In this document: positions 17,726 through 43,814 of the stretch, piece by piece | How positions within the stretch are numbered: position 1 is the stretch's first letter | How the letters are laid out: the number at the start of each line of letters is the position of its first letter | Assembly: GCA_964460115.1 (NCBI GenBank) | Contig: CAYWPR010000001.1 | Location: forward strand, 120,829 to 184,828 | Length of the DNA stretch: 64,000 bases | From: an uncultured Myxococcales bacterium | GTDB taxonomy: Bacteria > Myxococcota_A > Polyangia > Palsa-1104 > JAEUJZ01 | Direction of reading: 5' to 3' | The notes under the pieces: model-generated | What the model was told of the DNA's origin: nothing | Database searches by the model: none | The model's input: only the letters and a program-made list of their open reading frames with translations | Program-made: the position numbers and the translations under genes

Positions 17726-17757
17726 CGCCGCCTCTTCACCTGCGCAAACGACTGACG

Positions 17758-19858: not shown

Positions 19859-19915
19859 CCCGGCGCAGCCAAGCCCTGCCACGCAAAGATTTCAGCCACC
19901 AAGCGAGGTCTTAAG

Positions 19916-21355: not shown

Positions 21356-21357
21356 GC

Positions 21358-22077
21358 ATGGGCTGCAAGACCTGCCGCTCTGAATGCGGCCGAGAAGACG
21401 GCTGCGGCAGCCGCAAGGCCGTACAAAAAGAGCTACTCGACGGACTTTTGGCCCGCTTATATCCCAGCCACTGCTGGGGCCAGCCCGAGGCACTGGCCAG
21501 TCTGCAAGACGGGCTCGATCTGCAAGAAGTGGTGCAATTGGCCAGCTGGCTGGCCACGGCGCTGCGCGTTCCCGCCTACGTCGTACCGGGCGGCGAAGAC
21601 GATCATTGCAATTTTATTTACGCGCTGTGCTTTGGCCGCGAACCCGCGCTCGTCGAGTTGCGCGAGGCGCCGCCGCCCGCTTGGGCCTGGGATCAGCAAG
21701 GCCCTTCGGTGCGCGATCGCTATCTGCGCATTGCTTGTTCGACCTTGGGGCGGCTTGCTTGCGTGCAGGAAGTGGCCATGGAGCTTTTTACCCAGAGCAG
21801 CGATTGTCCGACGAATATGGTCGCGGTTCGCGAATCTTCGCTGCCCGGCGTTTTCGATCCGGTTCTGCTCAAACGCTTTCAGCGCACCGTCGATCTTTTG
21901 GCGGCGCACGGCGTCGAGCACCTTGACATGGGATTGCTCGACGTCGATGCCGAAGCCTTCGGGCTTTTGCCCGGTGACTACCTAAGCCGCTTCGGCGCCG
22001 CCCCGGCTTTGCTCAATTACCTTTTTTACGCCACCCCCGTAAAAACCACCGCCGTAACCTTCCTACCGATCGCCTAG
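21358..22077 (+). CDS. hypothetical protein with Cys-rich N-terminus (MGCKTCRSECGREDGCG); starts 3 nt after the glmU stop
   Basis: The long ORF 21115..22077 overlaps glmU in another frame. The first ATG after the glmU stop is 21358. No known domain. Confidence 0.5.
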   Translation: MGCKTCRSECGREDGCGSRKAVQKELLDGLLARLYPSHCWGQPEALASLQDGLDLQEVVQLASWLATALRVPAYVVPGGEDDHCNFIYALCFGREPALVELREAPPPAWAWDQQGPSVRDRYLRIACSTLGRLACVQEVAMELFTQSSDCPTNMVAVRESSLPGVFDPVLLKRFQRTVDLLAAHGVEHLDMGLLDVDAEAFGLLPGDYLSRFGAAPALLNYLFYATPVKTTAVTFLPIA

Positions 22078-25206: not shown

Positions 25207-27018
25207 GTGCCAACCCGCAAACCGCCTGCTTCCGCCGCTTCTAAGACAAGTGCTTCCAAACCCGTTTCAGTCCGCCAAAGCGCCGCGAAAAAAGCCGCGG
25301 CGGCGCCGGCGCTTTTATCGACACGTATCGTCGACCTTTTCGGCCTTGGCCACCAAGAGCAGCGGCTGCTTTCCCATTTGCTGGCCGCGTCTACGGCGCT
25401 TAGCCTTCGGGAGCTGGCCGAGCAGTGCGATGTGCCGCTTGGCGAAGTCATGGCGCTTTGCACGCCGACCGGAAAGCTGCGCGTCCGCGGCCTGGTTGAA
25501 ACCGAGGACGCAGCCGAGCTCGGCTGGCCTCTGCCCTCCGATCTAGTTCTGCCGGGTCGCGGTTTGCATTTGCACAGTGATGCATTCGGCCAAAAGCTGG
25601 CCGACGATTTCACTTTGTTTTGCAGCCAAGCGCCCGGCATTCGCTATATGCCAAGTCCGTCGACCGCGACCGCCTGGGCCAAAGACCTTGTAGAAGAACC
25701 GCCGCCTCCAGCCATTGCCGAGGTCGTCCGTCAGCATCTAAGTGCACCGCACGCCGTCGTGTTGTGGCTGGATGGAGTTTTGCTCGAGCAGATTGCGCCT
25801 TTGGCGCAAGCGGTAGGCAGCCGGCTGCAGCGGCCCGTGGTTTGTATCGATGGGGCGGCACTTTGTGGCTTTCCGCATTTGCAGCTTTTGCGCGCGCTGC
25901 GCCGTTTGCGCCGTGACGCCGATCTGCGGGGCGCAGCGGTAGTGGTCAGCGAAGTGGATCGCCTGGCCGACGCTTGGCCGGCGCTGTGCCAACCGCGGCC
26001 GAGCGGCCAGACGGCTCCGCTGCTTTTGTGCAGCCAAAAACTGCGCGGCCCGCTAGGTCGGCCACCGATCGGCCAAAGCGATGAAAAAGCGCTGATTTCG
26101 ATCTTTGCATCGCTGTTGCCCGGAACTGCTCAAGGCGCAGCAGCTACTTCGGCTGCCGGCGGCGTGCCCGCCGAAGATCCGGCCACGCTAGCCAGCCGCG
26201 AAGAAGCGCGACGTCGAGCGGCCCTTGATGCCGCTCGAGCCATGGGGCGGCCGATTCCGCCCGAGCTGTTAGAAAATTCTTCCAATTCGGCAGCTAGTTT
26301 CGCGCCGGCTCGTAAAGCGGAGCAAAGCGCGCCGGCCCCAAGTTCCTTGGCGGCACGCGCACCGGCCACCGGACCCGCCAGTCCGCCGGCTTCGCAGTCT
26401 GTCCCCGCCGCGCCTGCCCCGACGGCTGAAACCGAGGCCACGACGGCGCCCGCATCAGCGCCGAGCGGCCGCGTGCACAATCCGCGCCTTGCCGCGGCGC
26501 TGGCCAAGGCCGGGGTGTCCGTGCCCGGCAGTTCCGAGGATTCGCCTCCTGAATACGCCCGGCGACTGGCCGAAGAGCCTGTCGCGCCCTTGCCCGCCAA
26601 AATTCCTGAACTTCCGCCGCCAAGCCCCCCGACCATTGCGACAAGCGCGGCGGCTTTGGTCGCTGTGGCACAGCCGGCCTCGGCCGGCGCCTCCGCCGAG
26701 GAAAATGCGGAAGATCCCCCGCCGCTGCCAATTGATGAAAGTGCGCCCCTTGATGAGGCACTGCGCGTGGCGCGCACGACGCCGAATAACGCCCAGCGCA
26801 TTTCCCTCATGCAGCGCTTGGCCACGACGAAATCTCCAGGGGTGATTCAGCTATTTCGTATGAGCCTAAGCAGCTCGCATGCCGGCGTACGCGCCGCGGC
26901 CGAGGTTGGCATGGCCACGCTGTTTGGCCCCGGCTGGAATCGCACAAAAGCGATCGTGGCACCGATTCAACCGCCACGCAGCGACGACGGCGGCCGCGGT
27001 CCGGGCGGTGCTTTTTAG
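25207..27018 (+). CDS. hypothetical Ala/Pro-rich protein with N-terminal winged-helix-like segment and C-terminal HEAT-like repeat; GTG start
   Basis: LFGLGHQEQRLLSHLLAASTALSLRELAEQCDVPLGEVMALC resembles a wHTH. The C-terminal RISLMQRLATTKSPGVIQLFRMSLSSSHAGVRAAAEVG resembles PBS-lyase HEAT repeats. The long central region is low-complexity. Confidence 0.45.
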   Translation: MPTRKPPASAASKTSASKPVSVRQSAAKKAAAAPALLSTRIVDLFGLGHQEQRLLSHLLAASTALSLRELAEQCDVPLGEVMALCTPTGKLRVRGLVETEDAAELGWPLPSDLVLPGRGLHLHSDAFGQKLADDFTLFCSQAPGIRYMPSPSTATAWAKDLVEEPPPPAIAEVVRQHLSAPHAVVLWLDGVLLEQIAPLAQAVGSRLQRPVVCIDGAALCGFPHLQLLRALRRLRRDADLRGAAVVVSEVDRLADAWPALCQPRPSGQTAPLLLCSQKLRGPLGRPPIGQSDEKALISIFASLLPGTAQGAAATSAAGGVPAEDPATLASREEARRRAALDAARAMGRPIPPELLENSSNSAASFAPARKAEQSAPAPSSLAARAPATGPASPPASQSVPAAPAPTAETEATTAPASAPSGRVHNPRLAAALAKAGVSVPGSSEDSPPEYARRLAEEPVAPLPAKIPELPPPSPPTIATSAAALVAVAQPASAGASAEENAEDPPPLPIDESAPLDEALRVARTTPNNAQRISLMQRLATTKSPGVIQLFRMSLSSSHAGVRAAAEVGMATLFGPGWNRTKAIVAPIQPPRSDDGGRGPGGAF

Positions 27019-30021: not shown

Positions 30022-32169
30022 ATGTCATTTACACTATCGCGAGTGCCAGGGGTGCGCATGGCCCTGGTGCTGGCCCTAGTGCTGAGCGGGGCTGTCGCAC
30101 AGGCGGAACTGCGTCCGCAGGGTGAAGCGGTCTTACTCGGCGATTCGACAAACGGCGGGCTGCTGGTCAATGTACGAATACGTCTGGCCGCTGAAGCGGG
30201 CATTACGCCGCCGATTGGCATGCCGACGCTGCGCGTCTTGCCGGTCACGAATTGGCGGAGCGAAGGCAACACCGTCGTGGGCGAAGTGGCGGCTGGCGCC
30301 AACCTCGGCGGACTGCTTTTGAATCTGCGTTGGCAGCAAACCGCTGAAGGTGCGTACGCCCTGCAGGCCGAAGGACAAGCGACTTCGCCCCTGTGGATTG
30401 GCATGCTGTCTATCGAAGTGGAGCTTCCCGATGGAGCTGCCAGTCTTGGCGGTCGCGAGCTGCATTTGCACCCGCTCGGGCGAACCGCAGCCTTTTCCGG
30501 ACTGGATCCCAAGTGGCTGCTGTTTTATCCGCAAGCTGGCGCCACCCGCAAAGAACGGCAAGCCGCGGCTGCCGCGCATTTGCCGCGGCCCTCTGCGTGG
30601 ACGCTTTTTGCCGATGACGATGCCGACGGAATCAAAGCCGTTCGCGAAGCTTCGCATCTTCAGTATCGCGTCGATCTTTTCTCGACAGAAGCTCGACCGT
30701 TCTCGCATTTTGCTTCGTGTACGGACAATTGGCATTCGCCCAATCACCGGCAGCTTTTGCCGGTGCGGCTGGTCCAGCCCGATGAACCGCTACACAGCGA
30801 GATCACCATTTATCAAGGCACGGCGGTGCCGATATTTAAGGCGCGTTATCCCGACGGCCGAAACGCGGCGCTGGTCATTACTGATCATGCCGATCAGACC
30901 TCAGCGGTCACTTTGCGCGCGCTCATCGGCGGCACCTCTGATGTGACTTCTCCAACTTGGGGCCAGGGCGGACTGCTCGGACAAGGTCTGCGCATTACCA
31001 AATCGCTGTGGATGTCCAGCGGCGAGCCAGCGCCACCGCCGCTTCTATACACCGCCGCCGATTCATCGGCCACGCACGCCGAGCACGGCAGCCATCGTGC
31101 CCTGACTGCGCAACAGGCGCGACCGTCTCGCGCTACCAAAATCGTCGCATTTCGCAACCGCTACGGCCGGCCGCAGGTCGATTCGACGGGCGGCGGACGA
31201 CCGCAGCTTGACGATCCCGAAGTGGCCGAAATGGCCGAGCGCATGGCTCGCGTCGGTTGGGAAATCGTTCCGCACTCGGCGACTCCACTGCGCGATGAAC
31301 GCGACCGCACCGAGATGGCCCTGGAATGGTTTTCGCGCTACAAAGCGCACACTTGGATCGATCATCAGCCCTATACCAACTGCGAAGCGCTGATCAATCA
31401 GGGATACAAGACCGGTCCCTTTGGCATCGTCGATCTGCTGCACAAGTTTGGCTATAGCTATGCGTGGTCGGGTATTGACGTACCGCTTGGCTCGCTGAAT
31501 CTTTTGGCGCCGCGACGGCTGGATCGCTACGTGCCGGTGCTGTGGCCGGCCGGACGGCTGGCGCACGGAACTCCGCCGGGATTGTGGCTGTTCAGCACGA
31601 TGATGACCTACGTCGATAGCGCTCAGTTTTTCAAGATCTACGGCAAAAAGGCCCTGGACCAGCTTGAACACGAGCGTGGATTGCACATCGCCCACACCTA
31701 TTTGGAAGCCTTTCATCCGCCGGCCAGCCCCTTTGTGAAGCGCAACCTCATGCTTCCCGGCCATCGACCTGGCGAAGTGGTGCTGGATCCCAAGCTGGAC
31801 GCTTTGTTTCATGCGCTGGCGGCGCGCGTCGCCCATGGCGGGCTGTGGATTCCCACGCTCAGCCAGCTTGGCGATCACATGCGTGCCATGACCACGGTTT
31901 CAGTGCGTCTGCAGGCCGACGGCAGCGCCGTGTTGCAATCGCCGCAGACCTTAAGCGGCGCCACATTCGTGCTGCCGCGCCCTGGCCTGCGCGTGCTTAT
32001 CGACGGACAGCCGCCCAAAGGTCAGCGCAGCTCACGCAAAGACACGACCTTTTGGGTGGATTTGCCCGCCAACCGCCAAGTTCATGTGATGCTTCTGGAT
32101 GCGCAAGGCGAAATGGTTCTGTTTCGCCGCCTGCCGGAAGGCAAGTCTTTGCTCGCGGTTCGCAAATAG
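30022..32169 (+). CDS. hypothetical secreted protein (signal peptide; possible carbohydrate esterase/hydrolase-like central domain)
   Basis: Signal peptide MALVLALVLSGAVAQA (an alternative start near 30058). 715 aa with no confident family assignment. Confidence 0.5.
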   Translation: MSFTLSRVPGVRMALVLALVLSGAVAQAELRPQGEAVLLGDSTNGGLLVNVRIRLAAEAGITPPIGMPTLRVLPVTNWRSEGNTVVGEVAAGANLGGLLLNLRWQQTAEGAYALQAEGQATSPLWIGMLSIEVELPDGAASLGGRELHLHPLGRTAAFSGLDPKWLLFYPQAGATRKERQAAAAAHLPRPSAWTLFADDDADGIKAVREASHLQYRVDLFSTEARPFSHFASCTDNWHSPNHRQLLPVRLVQPDEPLHSEITIYQGTAVPIFKARYPDGRNAALVITDHADQTSAVTLRALIGGTSDVTSPTWGQGGLLGQGLRITKSLWMSSGEPAPPPLLYTAADSSATHAEHGSHRALTAQQARPSRATKIVAFRNRYGRPQVDSTGGGRPQLDDPEVAEMAERMARVGWEIVPHSATPLRDERDRTEMALEWFSRYKAHTWIDHQPYTNCEALINQGYKTGPFGIVDLLHKFGYSYAWSGIDVPLGSLNLLAPRRLDRYVPVLWPAGRLAHGTPPGLWLFSTMMTYVDSAQFFKIYGKKALDQLEHERGLHIAHTYLEAFHPPASPFVKRNLMLPGHRPGEVVLDPKLDALFHALAARVAHGGLWIPTLSQLGDHMRAMTTVSVRLQADGSAVLQSPQTLSGATFVLPRPGLRVLIDGQPPKGQRSSRKDTTFWVDLPANRQVHVMLLDAQGEMVLFRRLPEGKSLLAVRK

Positions 32170-32196: not shown

Positions 32197-33606
32197 TTAC
32201 TCGCGCTTTTCGAGTACAGCGACGCATTCGACGTGCGCGGTATGCGGCGCCAAGTCGATGGGCTGTACGCGTCTAACCAAATAGTCCTGCGCGACGAGAA
32301 ACTCCAGATCGCGCCCCAGCGTCATCGAATCACAAGAGACATAGACGATGCGACGGGCTTGTAGCCGCGCTAAAAGCGGCAGAGCCTCGCGCGCGCCGAT
32401 GCGCGGCGGATCCAGCACCACGGCGTCAAACTGCGCCGCGCTTTGCACAAGTTCCAAAAGCGCCGCCTCGACTGCCTGCGCTTTCATGGTGATATTCGGC
32501 GCGTCCGCAAATAAAGCTTGCGCCCGCGCGACGGCTGCGGCGTCTCCCTCGATGCACAAAAGCGTGCGCGACGGCCCCTGTAAAGCGCGCGTCAGATTGC
32601 CGCTGCCTGAAAACAACTCCAAAAGCCGCAACGGCTGGCCCGGCCGCGGAGCAATCTCGGCAATCGCCGCGGCAACTTGTTGCGGCAAAAGTGCATGTCC
32701 GGCGGCGCTTGGCTGCGCAAAGCCTTCCGCCGATCCCTCAAATGGCCCTAGGTCGCTAGATTCGCCGATTTTCAGCGTCTTTTGACCGATGTATTCCGCG
32801 CGATTGCCGTCGTGCAGAATCACGCCGCAAACTTCGCCGCTTTGCCACAGATCATAAAGGGCGGACCGCACCGCTTGGCGCCGCGCTGCCGGTCCCAAGT
32901 GCACCGCCAAATGCACTGCCGGCTTTTCGGCCGTTTGCCCCAAAAGTCCGCGGACGGTGGTTCCTTCGCCAAAAAGCGGCACTAGCGCCCCCAAGCGCCC
33001 AAACAGCACACGATCAAGCGCCGGCGCTAGCACCGCACAACTGGCGATGAAAACGCCGTGGTGCGAGCGCGCACTGGCATAACCCAGCTTGCCATCGCGC
33101 ACCATCAGCCGAGCACGCAAGCGGTAGCCAAGCGCAGGGGTCGGCGCCAAAATCGGCAAAATAGTCGAGGCGCTCGTAGTTTTGCGCAGAGCGCGGCGCA
33201 CCCAAGCTTCTTTGGCGGCAAGCTGCGCCTCAAGACGCACCGGCATCAAGGGACAGCCGCCACATTTTTCGGACGCAGCCAGCGCGCACGCCGGCGTCAC
33301 GCGATTCGGGCCGGGCGATAGCACACGCAAAAGCCGGCCGCGGCCTAGACCCTTGCGCGGCGGCGCGATGGCCACTTCGACCCGATCTCCAGGAGTGCCG
33401 CCGGGCACAAAGACGACAAGTCCATCGTCGCGGCGCCCCACGGCATCACCGCCCGGAGCCATTTCAAAAAGGGTCAGTAAAGCGCTTGGCACGGCCGCGA
33501 TGGTAGCACCTTGACGGAGTGGCGAGCTCCCAGTATGACGGAAATGAGAAGGAGCGCGCCCATTGACCAGCTTATCGTCCAGTTCATCCGTGCGACCCCT
33601 GCGCAA
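32197..33606 (-). CDS. TRAM-domain 23S rRNA (uracil-5-)-methyltransferase RumA/RlmD family; true start possibly internal (~33462)
   Basis: TRAM-like N-terminus VVFVPGGTPGDRVEVAI. Four-Cys cluster CALAASEKCGGCPLM. SAM motif LELFSGSGNL and DPPRIGA. Confidence 0.8.
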   Translation of the reverse strand: MRRGRTDELDDKLVNGRAPSHFRHTGSSPLRQGATIAAVPSALLTLFEMAPGGDAVGRRDDGLVVFVPGGTPGDRVEVAIAPPRKGLGRGRLLRVLSPGPNRVTPACALAASEKCGGCPLMPVRLEAQLAAKEAWVRRALRKTTSASTILPILAPTPALGYRLRARLMVRDGKLGYASARSHHGVFIASCAVLAPALDRVLFGRLGALVPLFGEGTTVRGLLGQTAEKPAVHLAVHLGPAARRQAVRSALYDLWQSGEVCGVILHDGNRAEYIGQKTLKIGESSDLGPFEGSAEGFAQPSAAGHALLPQQVAAAIAEIAPRPGQPLRLLELFSGSGNLTRALQGPSRTLLCIEGDAAAVARAQALFADAPNITMKAQAVEAALLELVQSAAQFDAVVLDPPRIGAREALPLLARLQARRIVYVSCDSMTLGRDLEFLVAQDYLVRRVQPIDLAPHTAHVECVAVLEKRE

Positions 33607-34138
33607 ACTTCGCGCCTTTGCCGGTAAATTTCCGACGATCGATCCAAGCGTCTATATTGCCGATACCGCCACGGTGGTCGGCGACGTGCACGTCGGAGCC
33701 CGCTCGAGCATTTGGTTTGGCGCTGTGCTGCGCGGCGATGTCTTTCACATCCGCGTTGGAGAAGAGACATCGATACAAGACAACACGGTGCTGCACGTCA
33801 CCCACGATCGCTTTGCCACGGTGGTCGGCAACCGAGTGACGGTCGGCCACTCGGTGACGCTGCATGGCTGCACCATCGGCGATTTGTGCATCATCGGCAT
33901 GGGCGCCACGGTGCTCGACCAAGTTGAAGTTGGCGAGCGCTGCATCGTCGGCGCCGGCGCCCTTTTGACCCCCGGAACCAAAGTTCCCCCCGGGCACCTT
34001 ATCGTCGGCACCCCGGCGCGCGTCAAGCGCCCCCTGACCGACGCCGAACTTGAATGGCTGTCCGCTTCCGCCGCGCATTATGTGGAGCTTGGCCGCATTT
34101 ACGCCCGAGAGGAAGCCGAAGCCCAAACCGGCAATTGA
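33563..34138 (+). CDS. gamma-carbonic-anhydrase-like hexapeptide-repeat protein (YrdA/PaaY/CaiE family)
   Basis: Left-handed beta-helix repeats with the characteristic PTIDPSVYIADTATVVGDVHVGARSSIWFGAVLRGD. Confidence 0.85.
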   Translation: MTSLSSSSSVRPLRKLRAFAGKFPTIDPSVYIADTATVVGDVHVGARSSIWFGAVLRGDVFHIRVGEETSIQDNTVLHVTHDRFATVVGNRVTVGHSVTLHGCTIGDLCIIGMGATVLDQVEVGERCIVGAGALLTPGTKVPPGHLIVGTPARVKRPLTDAELEWLSASAAHYVELGRIYAREEAEAQTGN

Positions 34139-34177
34139 CAGTTCGGTTCGCTCCCGTAAAGATCAAAGGTTATCGGC

Positions 34178-36037
34178 ATGTTTGCGGCCTTTGCCAAAGC
34201 AATGGATGCGCTGAAAAGGCGCCTGAAAAAGCCGCACAAGCTGTGGCTGCTTTGGGCGGTGCTGCTTGGCATTGGGCTTCTTCTTGGACCGGTTCCGGCG
34301 TGGCTGCTCGATGGACTTTTGGCGGCGAATCTGACACTGGCAGTGACGCTGTGCGTGGTTGCGGCAAACGCTGGCGAACCGCGGCGCCTGCCGCAGCTAC
34401 CGGCCCTGCTTTTCATCTCGGTGCTGGTGCGGCTGGGGCTCAATATTGCCGCGCTGCGCCTTTTGTTCAGCGCCGGCGGCGGCGAAGCCGGCTGGCTGAT
34501 TCGCCAAAGCGGCGATTGGCTGCTTGGCGGCGATGCCATTTTCGGCGCAGTGCTCATCAGCGCAATTGGCGTCGTTGAATATCTGGTCCTGGTGCGCGGC
34601 GGTGAACGTGCGGCCGAGGTCGCCGCCCGTTTTGTTTTGGATGCACTACCCGGCAGGCAGGCCGCCATCGAAGCGGATCTGCGCAGCGGCGCCATCGATC
34701 AGACGCAAGCGCAAAAGCGCCGCCAGGCGCTGGACCACGAAGCCCAGATTTACGGGGCGCTCGACGGAGCGCTGCGCCTTCTGAAAGGCGATGTAATCGC
34801 GGCTCTGCTGCTTTTGTCCTTGGGATTTGCCGGCGGACTTTTGCTAGGCGTATTGCGCCAAGGGTTGGATGTCGCGCAAGCAGCCGAGCGCTATGGGCTG
34901 TGGATGGTCGGTCAGGGACTTTTGACGCAGGTGCCGGTTCTTTTGAACACTGCAGCGGCAGGGCTGCTTTTGACGCGCGGCGTTGCCGTTCAGCCGGCAG
35001 AGGGCCCGAAGGCCGCGCAGCACCTCGAAATTCGCATCGAAGCCGGCGCCGGTTTGAAAATCGATACGGCGCTTTTGCTATCGCTGCGCGAAACTCTGTC
35101 GGCCCGCCTGGGCTTTGCCGTGCCCGAGCTGAGGTTTTTACAGCTCGATTCGGCGCCGACCGGACGGCGGCTTTTGGTGCGTCTGTTCGGCGTACCGATT
35201 TTCGGCAGTGAACTGCACAGCGATAGCGATGTTCGAACCGTACTGCTTGGCCTGCTTTTGCCGGCGGCCGCCGATCTGTTGACGCTGGACATCGTGCAGC
35301 AGACTTTGGAGGATCTGGGGCAGCAGCAACCCGCTCTACTGCGTGAGACGGTGCCGCGCCGCATCGATCTGGGACGCTTGACGGCCCTATTGCGCCGCTT
35401 GCTGACGCAGCGAGTTTGGCCGCTTGATGTGCGGGCCGTGCTGGAAACTTTGGCCACGCTGCCGCGCATGGAAAGCGATTTGGACGCCTTGACCGAGCAA
35501 GTGCGAGGCGGTCTCGGGCGGTTTCTCATTTCCGGCTTGTTGCGCACTCCGAGCAGCGAAGAAGTTCCCACCAGCAGTGGACAAAACGGCTTGCCGGCGC
35601 TGCTTTTGTCAAACGAGATCGAAGAATTGCTGCGCGAGACTCGATCCGGGCCAAGCGCTTTGGGCATGGGCGGACCGCTTATCGAGCCGGAGCTGGAACG
35701 CGACATCGTCCAGGCAGTGCTGGCGGCGCGCACGCTGGCCCCCGAAGCTGCACTGCTTTGTCACGCCGACGTGCGACGTCTGGTCGAACAGCTTCTGTGC
35801 CGAACGCCCGAGTCCCTGCCGGTTTTGGCCTACAGCGAAATTCCCCCCTCGGTGCCAGTCATCGTTTTGGGCCGGGTCGAGCCCGGTCCTAGTTCGGGGT
35901 CGGGACATAGCTCGGTGCGGCCGCTGCCGTTTGTAGACATCGCGGCGGTTCCTTGGCAAATGCGCCCGACGACGACGTCGTCGTCGACAGCGACTTCTAA
36001 TTCCACTTCGACATCTACAGGCCGAAGCGGACTATAA
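34178..36037 (+). CDS. FHIPEP-family protein (FlhA / SctV export-gate homolog), orphan
   Basis: The N-terminal TM domain aligns along its length with FlhA. RFVLDALPGRQAAIEADLRSGAIDQTQAQKRRQALDHEAQIYGALDGALRLLKGDVIAAL matches the FHIPEP signature RFVLDGMPGKQMAIDADLNAG...FYGSMDGASKFVRGDAIAG. The C-terminal segment LDVRAVLETLATL matches IRDMRTILETLAE. Confidence 0.85.
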   Translation: MFAAFAKAMDALKRRLKKPHKLWLLWAVLLGIGLLLGPVPAWLLDGLLAANLTLAVTLCVVAANAGEPRRLPQLPALLFISVLVRLGLNIAALRLLFSAGGGEAGWLIRQSGDWLLGGDAIFGAVLISAIGVVEYLVLVRGGERAAEVAARFVLDALPGRQAAIEADLRSGAIDQTQAQKRRQALDHEAQIYGALDGALRLLKGDVIAALLLLSLGFAGGLLLGVLRQGLDVAQAAERYGLWMVGQGLLTQVPVLLNTAAAGLLLTRGVAVQPAEGPKAAQHLEIRIEAGAGLKIDTALLLSLRETLSARLGFAVPELRFLQLDSAPTGRRLLVRLFGVPIFGSELHSDSDVRTVLLGLLLPAAADLLTLDIVQQTLEDLGQQQPALLRETVPRRIDLGRLTALLRRLLTQRVWPLDVRAVLETLATLPRMESDLDALTEQVRGGLGRFLISGLLRTPSSEEVPTSSGQNGLPALLLSNEIEELLRETRSGPSALGMGGPLIEPELERDIVQAVLAARTLAPEAALLCHADVRRLVEQLLCRTPESLPVLAYSEIPPSVPVIVLGRVEPGPSSGSGHSSVRPLPFVDIAAVPWQMRPTTTSSSTATSNSTSTSTGRSGL

Positions 36038-36614
36038 AGCGCGGCCCGACGGTCAGATAAATCGGGATATGGCCAAGGTCGGTCAAAAAAGCATGGTAGC
36101 GAATGGCCACCCCGACGGCCCAGCGCCGCGTGATCAGGTAATCCGCCCCCAGGCCCAAAGAAGCGCCGGCGCCTACAGACTGCGTAACGCCTTCTGCGGT
36201 ACGCGTAACAGTGCCTAAAACGCCGAGCCCGGCTTCGAAAAAAGGCACGATGCGCACGATGTCCAGGGCGTAACTGATGCCAGCGCTGGCCTGCCAGCTA
36301 AGCAGCGTCCCGGCAGGCAGCATGTGCTTGTCATCTTGCAGCGCCGAAAGCGGATGCGCGGTCAGGCCGCCCTGAATTTGCACCGAGACGGCATCGGTCA
36401 GTCCATAGCTCAGATGCGCATTGCCGCCGCCGCCCGAAGGCGCGCGATCGTCAATATACGTAAGTCCGTACAGGGGCTGAATTCCCATCGCAAGCTCGCG
36501 CTGCTCGGCCCGCGCGCAAACCGGCCGGACGAGCATCAGCAAAGCCGTCGCCATGCCCAAAAGCGCGCCCGCTCGATAGGTTTGCCAAAACATGAACTGC
36601 AGCGTTGGTATCAC
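36015..36614 (-). CDS. small outer-membrane beta-barrel protein (OmpA-like/OMP_b-brl)
   Basis: Signal peptide present. Alternating amphipathic beta-strands with a C-terminal aromatic-rich strand (...IVRFGL). Confidence 0.6.
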   Translation of the reverse strand: MIPTLQFMFWQTYRAGALLGMATALLMLVRPVCARAEQRELAMGIQPLYGLTYIDDRAPSGGGGNAHLSYGLTDAVSVQIQGGLTAHPLSALQDDKHMLPAGTLLSWQASAGISYALDIVRIVPFFEAGLGVLGTVTRTAEGVTQSVGAGASLGLGADYLITRRWAVGVAIRYHAFLTDLGHIPIYLTVGPRFIVRFGL

Positions 36615-36656: not shown

Positions 36657-37949
36657 ATGACGACATCCCGTTACCCTTGCCAGGGCGGTGTACCGCCGAT
36701 GCAGCAGTCGCCGGAAAAGCCGGCGCGCCGGCCGGTGCAGGTGCGCCGAGTCGATGAATGCCAGACGCTCGATGAACTATTTCGCAGTTGTCTGCCGGCT
36801 TTTGGCGGCGGCTTTTTGCGCCGAATCTATTCGATTCTGGACGAGGCGATCGGGGCCGGTTGTCCGCTGACCTTGGCCATTGCCGGGCCGGTGACCGTTT
36901 CTGGCCAGCATCAGGCCTGGCTGCTGCCGCTTTTAGAGACCGGATGGGTCGCCTACCTAAGCACCACCGACGCGGTGTGCTATCACGACGGGCACCGGGC
37001 GCTTGACGAGCATCAGCAGGATCCCATCTACGAAGTGCCGATCTTCGGGGACGACGGGGCCTTGCGCGAAGCGGGCACGATTCGCGTGACCGACATGGGT
37101 TTTGATGAACAGGTGCTGCTCGATCAGGATCGCTTTCTGACCGCCTGCCTGCTGCGTCCGGAATTTCAGAAAAAAATGACCGGCACCGAGCTGCGCCATT
37201 TGCTGGGCGGCCGCTATGCCGCGCAAGAGCAAAAAAACGGCTCGGCCGCGGGCTTGCTCAGCACTTGCCAGCGCTTGGCTGTGCCGATCTTTGTCGGAGC
37301 TCCCGGTGACGGCAGCGTATTTTTAAACGCCATGAAGCTGTGGGCGATGCAAAAAGCCGGTCTTTTGCCAGAACATCGCTTCGAACTGGACTGCCAAGCC
37401 GAGGTGTTTGAGTCCTGCGCCTATCACTACTGGGGGCTGTTTGAAAACTCGGCGCGCAGCCTGGCGACGCTGATTCTAGGTGGCGGCGTGCCCAAAAACT
37501 ATAACCTGCAGCCCGAGCCGGCGCTGTCGCAAGTACTGGGTCTACAGGAAGTGCGCGGCTATATGTTTGACGTACAAATCGTCAGCGCACCGATTACCGA
37601 CGGCTCGCTGTCGTCCTGCCCGCCGGCCGAGGCGGTCACCTGGGGCAAGGTGGACAAAGACGTTTACCCGTACACCACGGAAAGCATGCAGGCCGACTAC
37701 TCGATGGTGATGCCGTTTTTGGTAAAAGCGCTGCTCGAAAACCGCGCGCGCTATGCCCGCTGGGCTGAAAAAATGGGCGAAGAAGCGCTGTATGCGCAGC
37801 ACCCCAAGGCGCGCGGCTATTTGCGATCTCAAGGCGGCTATAGGCTGTTCGAAAAGCGCGAAGAACTGACGCAAAAGCTGCTTGTGGCGGTGCGCAATAA
37901 TGCCGACTGGCTTTTGCCAACGCTGCGCTATCCGCTGGCTTCGGCCTAG
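36657..37949 (+). CDS. deoxyhypusine synthase (DHS)-like family protein
   Basis: LTLAIAGPVTVSGQHQAWLLPLLETGWVAYLSTTDAVCYHDGHRAL and VPIFVGAPGDGSVFLN resemble the DHS Rossmann/spermidine-site motifs. Assigned from remembered patterns only. Confidence 0.5.
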   Translation: MTTSRYPCQGGVPPMQQSPEKPARRPVQVRRVDECQTLDELFRSCLPAFGGGFLRRIYSILDEAIGAGCPLTLAIAGPVTVSGQHQAWLLPLLETGWVAYLSTTDAVCYHDGHRALDEHQQDPIYEVPIFGDDGALREAGTIRVTDMGFDEQVLLDQDRFLTACLLRPEFQKKMTGTELRHLLGGRYAAQEQKNGSAAGLLSTCQRLAVPIFVGAPGDGSVFLNAMKLWAMQKAGLLPEHRFELDCQAEVFESCAYHYWGLFENSARSLATLILGGGVPKNYNLQPEPALSQVLGLQEVRGYMFDVQIVSAPITDGSLSSCPPAEAVTWGKVDKDVYPYTTESMQADYSMVMPFLVKALLENRARYARWAEKMGEEALYAQHPKARGYLRSQGGYRLFEKREELTQKLLVAVRNNADWLLPTLRYPLASA

Positions 37950-37961: not shown

Positions 37962-38387
37962 GTGCGCATCGTCATTCTGGCCGTCGGCAAGTTGCGCGAT
38001 CCGTGGGTGGCCGCGGGTTGCGCCGAATATATGCAGCGCTTGCGCGTGCGGCTACCCGTCGAAATGGTCGAGCTGCGGCGAGAAAACGAACTGCTTTTGC
38101 GGCTGCCGCCGCGTTTTGCGTGCTGGGTGCTGGATGAAAAAGGGGCGCAGCCGAGCTCGCGCGAGCTTTCCACACGGCTTGGCCAAGCGATGCACAGCGG
38201 TCAAAAAGGCATTGCCTTGTGCATCGGCGGCCCGGACGGACTGCCGGCCGAGCTTGTAAAGCGCGCCGACTACCTGCTGTCTCTGTCGCGCTTGACGCTG
38301 CCGCATCGGCTGGCGCGGCTTTTGCTTTTGGAACAGCTTTACCGCGCCGCCTCAATTTTGGCCGGCGAACCTTATCACCGCGATTAA
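37962..38387 (+). CDS. rlmH: 23S rRNA (pseudouridine1915-N3)-methyltransferase RlmH (SPOUT)
   Basis: MRIVILAVGKLRDPWV...CIGGPDGL...SLSRLTLPHRLARLLLLEQLYRAASILAGEPYHR matches the YbeA/RlmH consensus. Confidence 0.9.
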   Translation: MRIVILAVGKLRDPWVAAGCAEYMQRLRVRLPVEMVELRRENELLLRLPPRFACWVLDEKGAQPSSRELSTRLGQAMHSGQKGIALCIGGPDGLPAELVKRADYLLSLSRLTLPHRLARLLLLEQLYRAASILAGEPYHRD

Positions 38388-38432: not shown

Positions 38433-39719
38433 CTAAGCAGTTTCTGACTGCAAGCGCGCGAGGATTTCGGCGGCGCGCTCGGCGCAGATGTCTTTGCTCG
38501 CAGACAGCTCTGCGGCGACGCGATCGACAAGCTCGCCGGTGGCTCCGGCGGCCACCGCTACCGATCGAGAATGCAGCGACATATGGCCGCGCTGAATGCC
38601 CTCGGTGGCTAGCGCGCGCAGAGCAGCCAGATTGCTGGCCAGTCCCGCCGCAGCCATGATCATGCCCAGTTCGCCGGCGTTTTTGACGCCGAGGATGCGC
38701 AGGCTCAGCCGAGCGCCCGGATGCACGCGCAACGTCCCGCCCACCGTGCCGACCGCCAGCGGCAGCTCTATTTGGCCCCTCAGACTGCCGTCTTCGGTGC
38801 GCCGCCAAACCGCCAGCGGCCGGTAGACGCCGCTGCGCGCCGCGTAGGCATGCGCCCCGGCTTCGACTCCGCGCCAATCGTTGCCGGTGGCGATCACCAC
38901 CGGATCGATGCCATTGAGGATTCCTTTGTTGTGGGTCGCGGCGCGGTAGGGATCAAGCTCGGCAAAACGGCTGGCGGCAACGATTCCTGCCAAAACCTCT
39001 TGGCCGTTGTAGCCGCCTCCGCCCAAAAGCCCAGAAGAGATCTGACACCAAACGCGTACCCGTCGGCGATCCGCCAAGTTCGAAAGGATGCGCAGGCCCA
39101 CCTGAGCACGCGCAAGCGCCGCCAAGCGACCGGCCACGGCCTCGGCCATGGTGTTGACCAGGTTTGCGCCCATGGCGTTGCCGCAGTCGGCAATAATGTG
39201 CACCACCAGCATTCCTGGTTCCAGCACTCGCACTTCCAGTTCGCGCGCTCCGCCGCCGTGCCGTACAAGTCCTGGACAAGCGGCATTGCAGGTGGCCAAA
39301 AGCTCGGTTTGTGCTTCTACAATCGCGACACTGGCAGCCTCTATATCGGGCACGTTGCACAGTTGCACCTGCCCAAGCATCAGCGGCGGATCGGCTTCGG
39401 CATGAAAGCCGCCGCCCTCGCGCACCATGCGCGCGGCATTCGAGGCCGCGGCAATGACCGATGGCTCTTCGACGCACATCGGAACCAAATAATCGTGGCC
39501 GTTCACCTGAAAATTCAGGCCGAGGCCCAAAGGCAGCGTATAGGTGCCGATGACGTTTTCGACTATATGGTTGGCCGCGTCCACGCTCAGGCCGCCGGAA
39601 CACAGCCGCTCGCATTCTTCCGGGGTCAATCCGGCGCGCTGCAAAAGCTGGTGCCGCTCATCGAGCGTGAACCGATAGAAGCCGGGAATGCGTGAACTAT
39701 CGACGCGGGTGCTCTTCAT
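38433..39719 (-). CDS. mvaA: hydroxymethylglutaryl-CoA reductase, class II (428 aa)
   Basis: ENVIGTYTLPLGLGLNFQVNGHDYLVPMCVEEPSVIAAAS is the class II HMGR signature. 428 aa, as for P. mevalonii MvaA. Confidence 0.9.
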   Translation of the reverse strand: MKSTRVDSSRIPGFYRFTLDERHQLLQRAGLTPEECERLCSGGLSVDAANHIVENVIGTYTLPLGLGLNFQVNGHDYLVPMCVEEPSVIAAASNAARMVREGGGFHAEADPPLMLGQVQLCNVPDIEAASVAIVEAQTELLATCNAACPGLVRHGGGARELEVRVLEPGMLVVHIIADCGNAMGANLVNTMAEAVAGRLAALARAQVGLRILSNLADRRRVRVWCQISSGLLGGGGYNGQEVLAGIVAASRFAELDPYRAATHNKGILNGIDPVVIATGNDWRGVEAGAHAYAARSGVYRPLAVWRRTEDGSLRGQIELPLAVGTVGGTLRVHPGARLSLRILGVKNAGELGMIMAAAGLASNLAALRALATEGIQRGHMSLHSRSVAVAAGATGELVDRVAAELSASKDICAERAAEILARLQSETA

Positions 39720-39725
39720 GGGTTT

Positions 39726-40697
39726 TTACCGCGGGAAGCCGCCGACGTGGCATCCAGCCAAGCTAATCTGCAGAGGCAAAAGCTCGAGCTCGGCATACAC
39801 CGGACTGGAATTTGCGACAAGTCGCTGCTCCAGCGCCGCTGCTGCTTTGAGGTCGGGAAGAAACACAACCGCCAAGTCGCCGCCGCCAGCCCCCGACGGT
39901 TTGGCCACCCCTCCGACTTGTTTGGCAAGGTCGGCAATGGCCATATGCTCGGCGGTCAGCAATTCACAATTCAAAGCTTCCTGCAAAACGCGAAAAGCCG
40001 ACTGCGCTTCGGCGACCGCTTCCAGAATCTCGCCCGGCGCGGCCATGCGGCAGGCTTGCAGAAAGCGCTTTGCGGCTTGGCCCATGCGCGCCCGGCCCGA
40101 ATCAGCCGCTGCGCCGACGCTGCGATAGCGTTTGATAAGCGCCGCGGTCGAGGCACTGCGTCCGGTGGCAATAAAGCGCAGTTGCAACGGCGCAGGCAGT
40201 TGCAGCTCGTCTGGGCAATGGTCAAGGGCCGCGCCGCGGTTTTCCAAAGCGCGCAGCCCGCCAAAGGTCGATGCCAGCACATCGGCGCCGCTGCCTGGCT
40301 CGCCTTGCGCTATGTCGTGCGCGCGCCGCGCCGCCCGATGCAGCGCGATCAAGTGAGCCGCTGGCAAAAGATCGCGTCCAGCCGCGACAAAAAGCGCGCC
40401 GAGGGCGGCAACGGTCGCCGCGGCGCTGGAACCAAGCCCCAGTTTGCGTCCATTTGGCGCAAAAGCCGTGGTGTCCACAACCGGAACGGCGGACGGAGCA
40501 CTTGGGCCCAAACTCAAAAGCTCGATGCGCGCTTGCTCTAGAGCGGCGCGAATAAAATCAGACGCGGGGCTGGCGTTTTCATGAAGCTGCGCCACGGCGT
40601 AGCGATTCACCGCCGCGACGACTGCGGAGCTTCCGTCTAAAACCGCGTACTCGCCAATCAGCATGGCTTTGCCTGGGGCTAAAATCGCCAGGCTCAC
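39726..40697 (-). CDS. phosphomevalonate kinase (GHMP kinase)
   Basis: N-terminal APGKAMLIGEYAVLDG (PMK-type) and GHMP motif KLGLGSSAA. Confidence 0.8.
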   Translation of the reverse strand: MSLAILAPGKAMLIGEYAVLDGSSAVVAAVNRYAVAQLHENASPASDFIRAALEQARIELLSLGPSAPSAVPVVDTTAFAPNGRKLGLGSSAAATVAALGALFVAAGRDLLPAAHLIALHRAARRAHDIAQGEPGSGADVLASTFGGLRALENRGAALDHCPDELQLPAPLQLRFIATGRSASTAALIKRYRSVGAAADSGRARMGQAAKRFLQACRMAAPGEILEAVAEAQSAFRVLQEALNCELLTAEHMAIADLAKQVGGVAKPSGAGGGDLAVVFLPDLKAAAALEQRLVANSSPVYAELELLPLQISLAGCHVGGFPR

Positions 40698-41719
40698 GAC
40701 AACGCCTCTTTGCCATCGCTCAAAATCTTCGCGCCGCTGCCTGGACGCGCAACGATCGTACGCAAAACCCCAGGAAGCGCGGCCAGCGCCGCGGCCACAG
40801 CATCGGCATCGGCGGCGGTCGTCAGGGCTTTGGGATGCGGTCCGGCATCGCAGGTAAAAAAAGCGCCGATTCCACGCCGGCGCAAGGCCCGTAGGGTGTG
40901 CAGTCCTTCCAGGGTGGCGCCGCGCAAGTACACAACGCCCGGATCAGCAGCCAGGGCCGAAGCGTGCATGCGCAGGGCGCTGCGCTCGGCCACAAGACCC
41001 AGGCGTTCCAAATCGCGTGCCTTTACAGCGGCTATCGCCTCCGCCAAATCGGCGGGAGCGGCCGCGACAAAAGACGCATAGTAGGGCGAAGTGGCCGCGG
41101 TGTGGCGCATTCCATCTGTAGAGGCCGTTTCCTTGGCCTGCTCGGTAGCCACGCCGATGACCAGGCGCAAATCCGACCAGTCATCGGCGGCGCACATCGG
41201 AACGGCGCGCGCCGAGTCCACTTGGCCGGGCGTGCCGGTGCCAAGGACGACCAGTCCGCCATACAGCGAACGGGCGGCCGAACCCGAGCCCTGCCGCGCC
41301 CAGATCGAAAGCCGGCAGCGCCAAGGCTCATCAAGCTGCCAACCCGGCGCTTGCAAAGCTGCGGTAGCGGCTACGGTAAGCGCCGCAAATGCCGAGGCCG
41401 AAGATGCCAGCCCAGCCGCCGTGGGGAAATTATTGTGGCTGCGTACTTCGGCGGGCAAGCGCGCCGGGATGGCCAAGGCGTGCGCAATGCGATCGAGGTG
41501 ACGCGACACTTTTCGCAGCGATTCGCCGTTTTGCGCCGTGCCGTTTAAGAAAAATCGATCGGCCAAAAGCGCACTGTCGAATGAAACTTCGGTGCGCGTG
41601 CGCAGTCCATCGAGCGTCAGCGACAAGCTAGGAACCGCCGGCAGATTTAGCGCCTCGTCATTTTTGCCCCAGTATTTGACCAGGGCAATGTTGGTGTTGG
41701 CTTCGGCGGCGGATTTCAT
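40694..41719 (-). CDS. mvaD: diphosphomevalonate decarboxylase
   Basis: NIALVKYWGKNDEALNLPAVPSLSLTL and the GLASSAS GHMP motif. Confidence 0.9.
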   Translation of the reverse strand: MKSAAEANTNIALVKYWGKNDEALNLPAVPSLSLTLDGLRTRTEVSFDSALLADRFFLNGTAQNGESLRKVSRHLDRIAHALAIPARLPAEVRSHNNFPTAAGLASSASAFAALTVAATAALQAPGWQLDEPWRCRLSIWARQGSGSAARSLYGGLVVLGTGTPGQVDSARAVPMCAADDWSDLRLVIGVATEQAKETASTDGMRHTAATSPYYASFVAAAPADLAEAIAAVKARDLERLGLVAERSALRMHASALAADPGVVYLRGATLEGLHTLRALRRRGIGAFFTCDAGPHPKALTTAADADAVAAALAALPGVLRTIVARPGSGAKILSDGKEALS

Positions 41720-42717
41720 CTGGTTCCTATTTGCACTTTGAAGCTTTGGTAGCCGGCTTTTTGCCAGGCCGCTTGGACCGCGGCTTCATTTTCAGGGGCC
41801 AGCGCGACCACACAGCCACCGCCGCCCCCGCCCGTCAGCTTGGCGCCAAGTGCGCCAGCGTCTCGCGCCAAGGCACACATGTGTTCGATCTCGAGACAGG
41901 AGACCTCCAGCGCCAAAAGCTCGGCCTGATTGCCGTTCATGGCGCTTCCCAGGGCGTAAAGGTCTCCGCAGCGCAGCGCCAAGGCGGCTTGTTCGACAAG
42001 CTCGGCAATGCGTGAAAAGCGCGCGGTCGTGCCCGCTTTGTCCTGCTTTTGCAGAAGCGCGACGTGCGCCACGCGGCCCTTGGTGTCGCGAACGCGTCCG
42101 GTGTGCCCGACCAGCACGGAAAGCGGCAGGAGGCTTTGCGGCACTTCTAGAAGTGGGGTCAAGCCGTGGCCGCGACGAAAAAGTCCAAAACCGCCGTGCT
42201 GCGCCAGGGCTTGATCCAGACCGGAAGATTGGCCGTGAAAAATCTGCTCGGCGGCAAAGACCGCGGCGTCTACCTGCTGCGAATGTAGATTCAGGTTCAG
42301 CGCCTGATTCAGGCAGCGCACCACGGCAACCGCCAGGGCCGCCGAACTGCCGAGCCCGGCACCAGTGGGAATGGCAAAGTGGACGATCAAATCGTAGGGC
42401 AAAAAAAACCGCTCTTGCGCACAGCCGGCCAAAAGCGAGCGCAAAATGGCTTGGTACGCAGCAGACAGTGGGCTATCCGCTGCGGCGGAGGCGTCAAGCA
42501 GTTCAGTGGCCGTGGCCGTGGCCACCTGCCAAGCCGGTACGCACAGGCGCCCAGCTCCGCGTACAGCCTGCACCGTGGCGCCGCGTTCCAAAGCCCCACA
42601 CAAAGCGGCTACGCCGTACACCACGGCATGTTCGCCAAGCAAGATGACCTTGCCGCAGGCGGTAGACTCCGCAACGATCTGTTGCGGTAGATCCTCAAGC
42701 GCAAGGGGGTTCATCAA
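41716..42717 (-). CDS. mvk: mevalonate kinase
   Basis: GKVILLGEHAVVYG and PTGAGLGSSAA GHMP motifs. Confidence 0.9.
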   Translation of the reverse strand: MMNPLALEDLPQQIVAESTACGKVILLGEHAVVYGVAALCGALERGATVQAVRGAGRLCVPAWQVATATATELLDASAAADSPLSAAYQAILRSLLAGCAQERFFLPYDLIVHFAIPTGAGLGSSAALAVAVVRCLNQALNLNLHSQQVDAAVFAAEQIFHGQSSGLDQALAQHGGFGLFRRGHGLTPLLEVPQSLLPLSVLVGHTGRVRDTKGRVAHVALLQKQDKAGTTARFSRIAELVEQAALALRCGDLYALGSAMNGNQAELLALEVSCLEIEHMCALARDAGALGAKLTGGGGGGCVVALAPENEAAVQAAWQKAGYQSFKVQIGTR

Positions 42718-43814
42718 AACGCACGATCCTGGCGTGCTTCTTCCAGCCAGGCCCGCAGCGCTTGGCCCAGCACGCGCGGCGCATAACGCAGCTCTTGGGA
42801 GCTGCGGCAGCCGGCCAAAAAGGTGATGGCGCGCAAGGTTTCAATGACTTGGGTCAAAAAGCGAATGACGCCATCGTAACCGCCGGACTTATGGGCGCGC
42901 AGCACCGGTGCTGCCAAGCCGCCGGCCGTGGCCCCGAGCGCCAGCGCATTTGCCACATCGGTGCCGCTGCGCAAACCGCCCGTTGCAATAATGGTCAGAT
43001 CGAGGTCGGCAAGCAGCCCAATCGATGCCGCCGTCGGAATGCCCCAATCCCAAAGTTCGTCGCCAAGCAGCTTGGCTGGACCTTCGGCGCGTTTGGTCTC
43101 GACGCCGACCCAGGAAGTGCCGCCGGCGCCGCTGACATCGACAGCATGTATGCCCAGGGAAGAAACCAGCTTGCCGACCCGGCGCGACAGGCCGCATCCG
43201 GTCTCTTTGACGACAATGGGCACGCCAAGCTCGCCGTGAAGCTGCGCCAGGGTTTCGCGCCCATGCCGAAAATCGCGATCGCCGCCCGGCTGTATCAGCT
43301 CCATCGCTGGATTTAAATGTACACACAGCGCATCGGCGCCGACCGCCTGCACCAATTGGCGCAGTTCGGCGGTACGCATATCGCGCGCTTGCACCAGGCC
43401 AATGTTGCCTAGAAGTAGCGCTGTCGGTGCAACATCGCGTACCTCGTAAGTGCGTGCACTTTCGGGTCGCACAAGCATGGCCCGCTGTGAACCCAAGCCA
43501 AAGCCAATGCCCAGCGTCTCGGCAGCACGCGCCAGATCGCGATTTATGGACTGTGCTTCATCGGTACCGCCGGTCATTCCGCTAATCACAAGCGGTGCCT
43601 GCAGCACTTTGCCCAAAAGCGGGGTTTGCAGATCGACATCGTCATAATGGCGATCGGGCAGCGCATCGTGGACAAGCTGTACTTGATCAAGGAGCGTGCC
43701 CTTGCCGCGAAACTCGGCTTCACCCGTCGAGCAAAGTGCAATGTGGTCGGATTTGCGTTGGCTAATCAGCGCCGGCGCCGCTGCCGGCACTGATATTGGT
43801 TGCGAATCGTCCAT
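42714..43814 (-). CDS. fni: isopentenyl-diphosphate delta-isomerase, type 2 (FMN-dependent)
   Basis: RKSDHIALC, the VKETGCGLS TIM-barrel motif and GAGGTSWVGVE. Confidence 0.9.
   Translation of the reverse strand: MDDSQPISVPAAAPALISQRKSDHIALCSTGEAEFRGKGTLLDQVQLVHDALPDRHYDDVDLQTPLLGKVLQAPLVISGMTGGTDEAQSINRDLARAAETLGIGFGLGSQRAMLVRPESARTYEVRDVAPTALLLGNIGLVQARDMRTAELRQLVQAVGADALCVHLNPAMELIQPGGDRDFRHGRETLAQLHGELGVPIVVKETGCGLSRRVGKLVSSLGIHAVDVSGAGGTSWVGVETKRAEGPAKLLGDELWDWGIPTAASIGLLADLDLTIIATGGLRSGTDVANALALGATAGGLAAPVLRAHKSGGYDGVIRFLTQVIETLRAITFLAGCRSSQELRYAPRVLGQALRAWLEEARQDRAF

Follow-up and report, generated by a model that had tools for sequence, protein, structure and literature searches.

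The gene at positions 34178..36037 (+) of a 64-kb window from an uncultured Myxococcales bacterium (contig CAYWPR010000001.1 of assembly GCA_964460115.1; 'the window' is the whole 64,000-nucleotide stretch analysed here) encodes, according to the open reading frame (ORF) list and its translation, a protein of 619 amino acids followed by a stop codon. This protein belongs to the FHIPEP (FlhA/SctV) family, less well understood and more conserved than any other part of type III secretion, but in a reduced form: transmembrane (TM) helices 7 and 8 are missing, as are the linker and subdomain 2 (SD2) of the cytoplasmic domain. We tentatively read it, with a confidence a little short of even, as a functional, vertically inherited, reduced FHIPEP module that is coupled to the proton-motive force (PMF) and is no longer a canonical chaperone-docking export gate. 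A literature search on FHIPEP and myxobacteria found no paper describing orphan FHIPEP genes, and this architecture, with six TM helices, neither linker nor SD2, and a consistently stand-alone position, appears to be undescribed so far, as does the descent of such a gene from orphan full-length genes in non-Myxococcia myxobacteria.

A shortened FHIPEP protein shared by a myxobacterial clade

PF00771 is the only Pfam family in the 619-residue protein, which it matches in two stretches (343.5 bits against a cut-off of 29.1; E = 3e-102). The motif block RFVLD..PG.Q.AI.AD...YG..DG.....GD is present, and the residues R151, F152, L154, D155, P158, G159, Q161, I164, A166, D167, Y192, G193, D196, G197 and D205 are invariant in an alignment panel of FlhA, SctV and clade sequences. 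Score and motif block together make the FHIPEP assignment secure. The first-pass annotation, drawn from the sequence alone, had called the gene a FHIPEP homologue carrying this block and had raised the possibility that the likeness was limited to generic TM helices; the profile hidden Markov model (HMM) match and the motif alignment uphold the former and dispose of the latter. Relatives of the protein already carry the NCBI label 'FHIPEP family type III secretion protein'. The FlhA and SctV equivalog models of NCBIfam score it nearly equally and far below their cut-offs (TIGR01398, 313.7 bits against 772; TIGR01399, 312.4 bits against 692). It also falls below the model for a chlamydial FlhA paralogue (NF004571, 145.5 bits against 670). 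That paralogue, of ~584 residues, is likewise a short FHIPEP protein encoded away from the flagellum, and reportedly interacts with type III secretion system (T3SS) components, but it forms a separate lineage, and the Chlamydiae own a complete injectisome.

Where a whole-length alignment with FlhA/SctV had at first been claimed, phmmer searches against PDB sequences aligned the protein in two separate blocks only, one at residues 26-268 (YscV 21-262, FlhA 28-272) and the other at about residues 350-567 (348-567 with YscV 492-702; 352-552 with FlhA 488-674). These blocks lie ~80 residues apart, compared with ~216 in FlhA. A hydropathy scan gave six TM segments (residues 19-40, 41-66, 72-100, 114-142, 197-228 and 247-266), not the eight of the expected FHIPEP domain; in the alignment with Escherichia coli FlhA, the TM7-TM8 hairpin (FlhA ~283-329) falls in a gap, the linker (FlhA 328-361) has no counterpart but a 14-residue tether modelled with low confidence, and SD2 (FlhA ~436-483) is also without a counterpart, while SD1, SD3 and SD4 are kept. 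Missing with these segments are linker residues E351, W354 and D356 of FlhA, and its SD2 dimple residue F459. An AlphaFold2 (AF2) model computed on the clade alignment, for the monomer only, has the same layout with six TM helices, at a mean predicted local distance difference test score (pLDDT) of 86. Its C-terminal half matches FlhA_C, SctV_C, MxiA, CdsV and InvA in Foldseek searches (E down to 7.5e-13; target-normalised template-modelling scores of 0.6-0.72). An even number of TM helices has been removed, and the C-terminal domain thus stays cytoplasmic. What had been taken for a full-length homologue is therefore a reduced one: the C-terminal ring domain is there as an FlhA_C/SctV_C fold, but SD2, part of the cleft, is missing from it, and the shortfall first put at ~80-100 residues is a net ~73, behind which stand ~135 residues deleted internally and a tail of ~50 that partly makes up for them. 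A split gene supplying TM7-8 or SD2 was ruled out, as neither the window nor the clade loci contain a second FHIPEP match.

A word-indexed search returned ~48 relatives of 535-685 residues (coverage at least 73%, identity 41-68%), beyond which the score falls from 299 to 238 bits, to ordinary FlhA and SctV proteins that match over the N-terminal 40% only. In an exhaustive search of 1.84 billion representatives, 1555 FHIPEP clusters had E < 1e-30, and ~11 of these matched in one end-to-end stretch. The clade thus delimited comprises ~54 sequences, equivalent to ~11 clusters at 50% identity, and was seen only in uncultured Polyangia/Myxococcales assemblies, named, where a name is given, 'Polyangia bacterium' or 'Myxococcales bacterium'. 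A scan of GTDB species representatives yielded four clade loci and a metagenome scan three more; look-up of the exact protein found only a 5.8 kb Logan contig.

To compare architectures, 266 retrieved FHIPEP proteins were placed on E. coli FlhA coordinates. All 54-56 clade members in this survey lack TM7-8, the linker and SD2, and TM7-8 were lost in none of the ~206 other proteins, which were assigned to TM7-8-containing classes. SD2 behaves differently, with ~70 non-clade proteins scoring as SD2-short; this form accounts for ~70 of the 150 best representatives. Two SD2-short proteins of 655-660 residues sit in a complete flagellar cluster (P0113, locus L172) and a complete injectisome cluster (P0095, locus L173), respectively. 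SD2 shortening alone is therefore not diagnostic of lost export function, and it is the deletion of TM7-8 and the linker that is distinctive.

Against a 98%-identical copy of the gene from an unrelated sequencing run (L171), we found 52 synonymous and 15 non-synonymous differences, a non-synonymous to synonymous rate ratio (dN/dS) of 0.10. The clade alignment, in which identity drops to ~41%, contains 45 invariant columns spread across the membrane and cytoplasmic domains, and the ORF is intact in all clade loci. The gene is under purifying selection. These observations bear on the suggestion, made in the first-pass annotation, of a stand-alone paralogue that is either a relic or a co-opted component. 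Its stand-alone state extends to the whole clade, and large internal deletions, an orphan position and a low-complexity tail are what one might see in a decaying, functionless relic of a lost T3SS or flagellum. Yet the low dN/dS, the conserved residues and an architecture maintained over ~54 sequences disfavour decay, as do deletions that are in frame and preserve topology, and we regard a relic, which purifying selection largely excludes, as highly improbable.

Proton-path residues and a proposed mechanism

Recent cryo-EM work has proposed that FlhA is a proton-driven motor with a core of TM2-6 (Johnson et al. 2026, bioRxiv 10.64898/2026.06.13.732081). In Salmonella FlhA, TM2-6 form this compact core, with TM1 and TM7-8 decorating neighbouring protomers; protons pass from R94 to R147 and D199 by way of the R85-D208 salt bridge; N137 and Q254 are indispensable, and position 249 must bear a negative charge (D249); and an essential inner charge ring, which includes R154 and D158, faces FlhB and lines the central channel which FlhB threads in the flagellar apparatus (Johnson et al., bioRxiv 10.64898/2026.06.13.732081). 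Mapped onto the clade, FlhA residues R85, R147, R154, D158, D199, D208 and Q254 are present in 54 of 54 members and R94 in 53, with Lys in the remaining one, while the position of K203 is Arg throughout. The clade thus keeps, under purifying selection, almost exactly the proton-conducting core described in 2026, plus TM1 and the cytoplasmic 'cup', and has discarded the helices that lace neighbouring protomers together, the linker and SD2.

Position 249 departs from this pattern, being Gln in 21 members (including the window protein), Asp in 17, Val in eight and other residues in the rest. At the N137 position, 24 of the 54 members, among them the window protein, have Glu, which occurs only where position 249 is non-acidic and in none of 206 other FHIPEP proteins; at least two sub-lineages (E/Q and E/V) evolved this arrangement. 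It suggests that a buried carboxylate was relocated within the path, which would argue for retained ion handling.

The same residues bear on the alternative that the protein is a non-conducting membrane scaffold or sensor, in which the TM core would be an anchor and SD1-SD3-SD4 would recruit or regulate cytoplasmic partners. Consistent with such a role, 37 of the 54 members no longer have the acid that Salmonella needs at D249, the C-terminal domain is strongly conserved with many invariant residues, and genes for PilZ, FHA, sigma-54 activator, Ser/Thr kinase and histidine kinase proteins recur, inconsistently, near clade members. However, no neighbouring gene is common to the whole clade, the R85-D208 pair, Q254, R94 and the entire charge ring are kept in essentially all 54 members, and the restriction of Glu at position 137 to members without D249 is as expected if a buried carboxylate must stay. 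We think a scaffold or sensor unlikely.

Along the gene, TM1-TM4 (residues 19-142; 34232..34603 (+)) are delimited by hydropathy and by AF2 helices at residues 22-36, 41-65, 74-98 and 120-170, and carry R85 and R94, numbered as in FlhA, as well as E134 at the N137 position. The FHIPEP cytoplasmic loop or cup (residues 143-196; 34604..34765 (+)), recognized by its invariant columns, holds R144, R151, D155 and D196, the counterparts of FlhA R147, R154, D158 and D199, all found in 54 of 54 members. TM5-TM6 follow (residues 197-270; 34766..34987 (+); hydropathy, AF2 and residue mapping), with R200 at the position of FlhA K203, D205 at D208, Q246 at D249, where the acid is lost, and Q251 at Q254. 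The short disordered tether (residues 271-284; 34988..35029 (+)), marked by the alignment gap and a pLDDT below 50 at residues 271-280, stands in for TM7, TM8 and the linker, ~80 residues in FlhA. It leads into an SD1-like subdomain (residues 285-351; 35030..35230 (+); alignment, AF2 secondary structure and Foldseek), which ends in a turn of ~6 residues (346-351) in place of SD2. The SD1 return helix, SD3 and SD4 (residues 352-570; 35231..35887 (+)), matched by phmmer against the PDB and by Foldseek, include the clade-invariant residues P385, E390, P393, R443, E482, R533 and E554. Last comes a low-confidence C-terminal tail (35888..36034 (+); pLDDT below 50 from residue 594) with the motif FVD.AAVPWQMRP, common to close relatives, and then a Ser/Thr-rich stretch (residues ~595-619). 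That Ser/Thr-rich end, noted in the first-pass annotation, is real but limited to this sequence and near-identical relatives; slightly more remote ones stop soon after the motif.

Set beside the injectisome SctV proteins (YscV/InvA/MxiA/HrcV), the clade protein has the same TM1-6, loop motif, charge-ring residues and SD1, SD3 and SD4 folds, but not TM7-8, the linker or SD2, and no sctRSTU, sctN or other T3SS genes nearby. With FlhA it shares the R85-D208 salt bridge, R94, R147, R154, D158, D199, Q254 and the order of TM core, cup and C-terminal domain, and differs in the replacement of D249 by Gln and of N137 by Glu in the window protein, in having six rather than eight TM helices and in lacking a flagellar gene context. 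Retained, then, are a compact six-helix membrane core with the FlhA proton pathway, the charged cup and a trimmed SD1-SD3-SD4 unit, and we propose that proton (ion) flow through the TM core would still be coupled to movements of the cytoplasmic domain. Three elements are gone: the TM7-TM8 hairpin, packed on the adjacent protomer in FlhA; the linker, which in FlhA latches neighbouring C-terminal domains and binds FliJ/SctO; and SD2, which is half of the cleft for chaperone and substrate. Canonical substrate sorting for a flagellum or injectisome would have been given up, and the protein may act in Polyangia-type myxobacteria as a PMF-coupled membrane module that stands alone or has other partners. 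Family membership, architecture, conservation, purifying selection and the orphan context are observations; ion conduction, oligomeric state, the cellular role and freedom from a T3SS are inferences. In a bolder version, which we consider possible but rather doubtful, the clade protein would be a free-standing minimal FlhA-type proton engine (TM1-6, cup and trimmed ring domain) that assembles and works without FliPQR/FlhB, making a stepwise-reduced orphan SctV into a hitherto unknown PMF-driven membrane machine of Polyangia.

Several points weigh against a PMF-coupled module that has left the export gate. The acid at D249 is lost, being Gln here, and 13 of the 54 members have no carboxylate at either position 249 or 137, such that proton conduction may be altered or lost; these 13 members, and the shared descent of the clade sequences, also limit the reading of a relocated carboxylate. 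The retained charge ring could mean that an FlhB/SctU-like partner survives. A ring without a gate would need a geometry other than that of the FlhA nonamer, because in FlhA itself a TM nonamer is argued to be unfavourable when the gate is absent (Johnson et al., bioRxiv 10.64898/2026.06.13.732081). SD2 shortening is weak evidence for lost export function, and as an argument against such function it was itself weakened by the SD2-short proteins in complete flagellar and injectisome clusters. Finally, multiple copies of sctV and sctR are mentioned in Polyangia (PMC11509652).

Orphan context and myxobacterial relatives

No flagellar or T3SS component was found beside the FHIPEP gene in the 64-kb window, using Pfam on ~60 ORFs and profile HMMs for FliF, FliI, FliM, FliN, FliO, FliP, FliQ, FliR and FlhB, although small needle-type ORFs were not scanned exhaustively. 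These HMMs were built from the flagellar and injectisome homologues in retrieved canonical loci. The first-pass claim that export genes are absent for at least 30 kb on either side thus stands in substance but overstates the span, as the window covers 34 kb upstream and only 28 kb downstream of the gene. The HMMs also found none in the clade loci L001, L003-L006, L008, L009, L011 and L090-L093 (flanks of retrieved loci extend to at most 10 kb), and E. coli queries, followed by family HMMs, for nearby T3SS parts returned nothing except a 17-bit P-loop match in L008. In a positive control, the T3SS* (needleless T3SS) locus of Archangium (L064), the same profiles recovered SctN, SctQ, SctR, SctS, SctT and SctU. 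The orphan context thus holds in 12 loci, and both the clade and its sister lineages have kept the gene as an orphan. A search for a conserved partner gene, by all-against-all comparison of neighbours in 17 orphan loci, gave only rlmH/rsfS, histidine kinases and Ser/Thr kinases, none common to the tight clade; in L003, L004 and L005 the neighbours are quite unlike the hexapeptide-FHIPEP-outer-membrane-protein arrangement of the window, L001, L090 and L171.

Standing alone at a locus need not mean standing alone in the cell, and the protein could instead serve, as an accessory or an unlinked component, a T3SS* encoded at another site of the genome, joining or replacing full-length SctV around an SctRSTU gate. 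The needleless T3SS* of Myxococcales has no needle or secretin (Abby & Rocha 2012; Thiery et al. 2022; Herrou et al. 2025), and such systems are known in Myxococcota, where the sctV and sctR copies in Polyangia already mentioned would accord with this alternative, as would the invariance of the FlhB-facing charge ring. Linkage can also be lost: in Archangium gephyra (L053) and Myxococcales 5N171 (L025), full-length sctV genes of T3SS* type lack sctRSTU neighbours out to 10 kb, whereas the 89%-identical sctV of L064 has its sct cluster immediately upstream, which indicates that sctV can be unlinked even in Myxococcia. On the other hand, the 28-34 kb flanking the gene here and the 10 kb flanks of 11 other clade loci are free of T3SS genes, and every member has lost TM7-8 and the linker, the parts responsible for nonamer building and FliJ/SctO binding. 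The myxococcal T3SS* SctV proteins (L064, L053, L025) belong to the same phylum and share with the clade a setting outside the classical T3SS, but they are full length at ~700 residues, with TM7-8, linker and SD2, and branch elsewhere in a neighbour-joining (NJ) tree. In L064, SctV adjoins sctN, Q, R, S, T and U, unlike the FHIPEP genes of the clade; more generally, a locus of the myxobacterial non-flagellar T3SS (Myxo NF-T3SS) is defined by sctN, J, Q, R, S, T, U and V together, none of which lies near the FHIPEP gene.

The distribution of T3SS in myxobacteria points the same way. According to published surveys, the main carriers of T3SS genes are Myxococcales/Myxococcaceae, as opposed to Polyangiales, Nannocystales or Haliangiales (PMC10196010, PMC11821767); in one set of 46 sludge bins, no bin other than that of the Myxococcaceae contained at least 50% of the T3SS homologues (PMC11821767), and the system table of Abby & Rocha has no entry for Sorangium or Haliangium (PMC3459982). 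The supplementary table of the same study does list Anaeromyxobacter genomes with flagellar loci as well as Myxo NF-T3SS (PMC3459982), and the earlier remark that myxobacteria lack flagella is therefore not universal at the gene level. On balance we judge a T3SS* subunit possible but well short of probable. If the host genomes have a gate, the needleless myxobacterial T3SS would possess in the clade protein an accessory SctV isoform of an unusual kind. If they truly lack SctRSTU, the FHIPEP engine would function outside type III secretion and would also offer a simpler natural model for proton coupling.

In the NJ tree (100 bootstraps; distance-based, with an arbitrary root), the clade has 100% support and is nested in a 100%-supported myxobacterial group. 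Again with 100% support, the clade and its kin group with SctV and apart from the FlhA proteins of E. coli and Firmicutes. In agreement, the best PDB sequence match is YscV (231.6 bits, against 201.3 for FlhA). The evidence for an SctV affinity of the clade is nevertheless only moderate, because the tree is distance-based and its root arbitrary. Sister to the clade, at 62%, is a group of full-length Haliangium-like FHIPEP genes (L015, L024 and L061), which also have no T3SS genes within 10 kb. Further sister lineages are orphan too, namely Nannocystaceae ST9 (L007), P0109 (L089) and Kofleriaceae (L069).

Orphan FHIPEP genes of other Myxococcota thus resemble the clade in standing alone, in falling in the 100%-supported group or the 62% sister, and in their linkage to rlmH, but they differ in keeping TM7-8 and, in the Haliangium-like forms, also the linker and SD2. 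Arranged by architecture, they run from full length (L015, L024, L061) through loss of SD2 (L068) and loss of SD2 with a short linker (L069, L007, P0109) to loss of TM7-8, linker and SD2 in the clade, which is the most reduced end of the series. Gene order is rsfS-rlmH-FHIPEP in L024 and L061, and rlmH adjoins the FHIPEP gene in L015; as the linkage to rlmH is common to the window and the Haliangium-like orphans, it points to vertical descent in one chromosomal neighbourhood. With a sister support of 62%, the reduced gene probably traces back to the full-length orphan FHIPEP genes seen in Haliangium-like myxobacteria. These genes (L024 8883-12061, L061 8948-12052 and L015 8219-11472) all lie directly after rsfS-rlmH and before a gene for a large receiver-DUF4388-TPR protein.

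In Nannocystaceae bacterium ST9 (L007), whose orphan FHIPEP protein keeps TM7-8 but not SD2, an SLT lytic transglycosylase gene (8961-10001) overlaps the start of the FHIPEP gene by 1 nt. Dedicated lytic transglycosylases accompany envelope-spanning machines, and by analogy this neighbour may hint at function.

Genes around the FHIPEP gene in the window

The immediate neighbours are those first described, as Pfam confirmed. Upstream, a hexapeptide-repeat (gamma-carbonic-anhydrase-like) gene (33563..34138 (+); Pfam Hexapep) ends 39 bp before the FHIPEP gene on the same strand, and the two are probably co-transcribed; their pairing is conserved in the closest relatives only (L001, L090 and L171). 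A promoter at ~34140-34178, of sigma-54 or other type, had been put forward for checking, but no sigma-54 site (TGGCAC-N5-TTGCW, at most two mismatches) occurs on the + strand at 33300-34178, sigma-54-like matches across the window are below chance expectation, and no sigma-70-like site was found in the 39-bp gap or upstream of it.

Downstream lies a convergent gene for a small outer-membrane protein (OMP) beta-barrel (36015..36614 (-); PF13505), with which the last 20 nt of the FHIPEP tail and the stop codon form a 23-bp overlap; it too is conserved only in L001, L090 and L171. It is followed by a deoxyhypusine-synthase-like gene (36657..37949 (+); Pfam), which adjoins the FHIPEP/OMP pair in the same three loci and may be homospermidine-synthase-like, and by rlmH, a SPOUT methyltransferase gene (37962..38387 (+); PF02590) 1.9 kb downstream of the FHIPEP gene. 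In L090, a 63%-identical relative, a ~9 kb element (12609-21467) carrying a phage-type integrase, a DUF3987 gene and a primase-like gene sits between the OMP and deoxyhypusine-synthase-like genes; the window is without it.

Pfam matches across the ~60 ORFs of the whole window are confined to housekeeping and signalling functions. An apparently complete operon for the mevalonate pathway (38433-43814 (-)), with HMG-CoA reductase, two GHMP kinases, diphosphomevalonate decarboxylase and an FMN-dependent (type 2 IDI-like) enzyme, fits a myxobacterial origin. Elsewhere, a Ser/Thr protein kinase is fused to a C-terminal response-regulator receiver domain (14375-15682 (-)), and a carotenoid-synthesis/metal-hydrolase fusion, a fatty-acid desaturase and a cytochrome P450 are clustered at 59221-63354 (-). 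Four large ORFs of 517-715 residues have no Pfam match (30022-32169 (+), 25207-27018 (+), 48391-50004 (+) and 53586-55139 (-)); the 715-residue one has a syntenic counterpart of 739 residues in L090.

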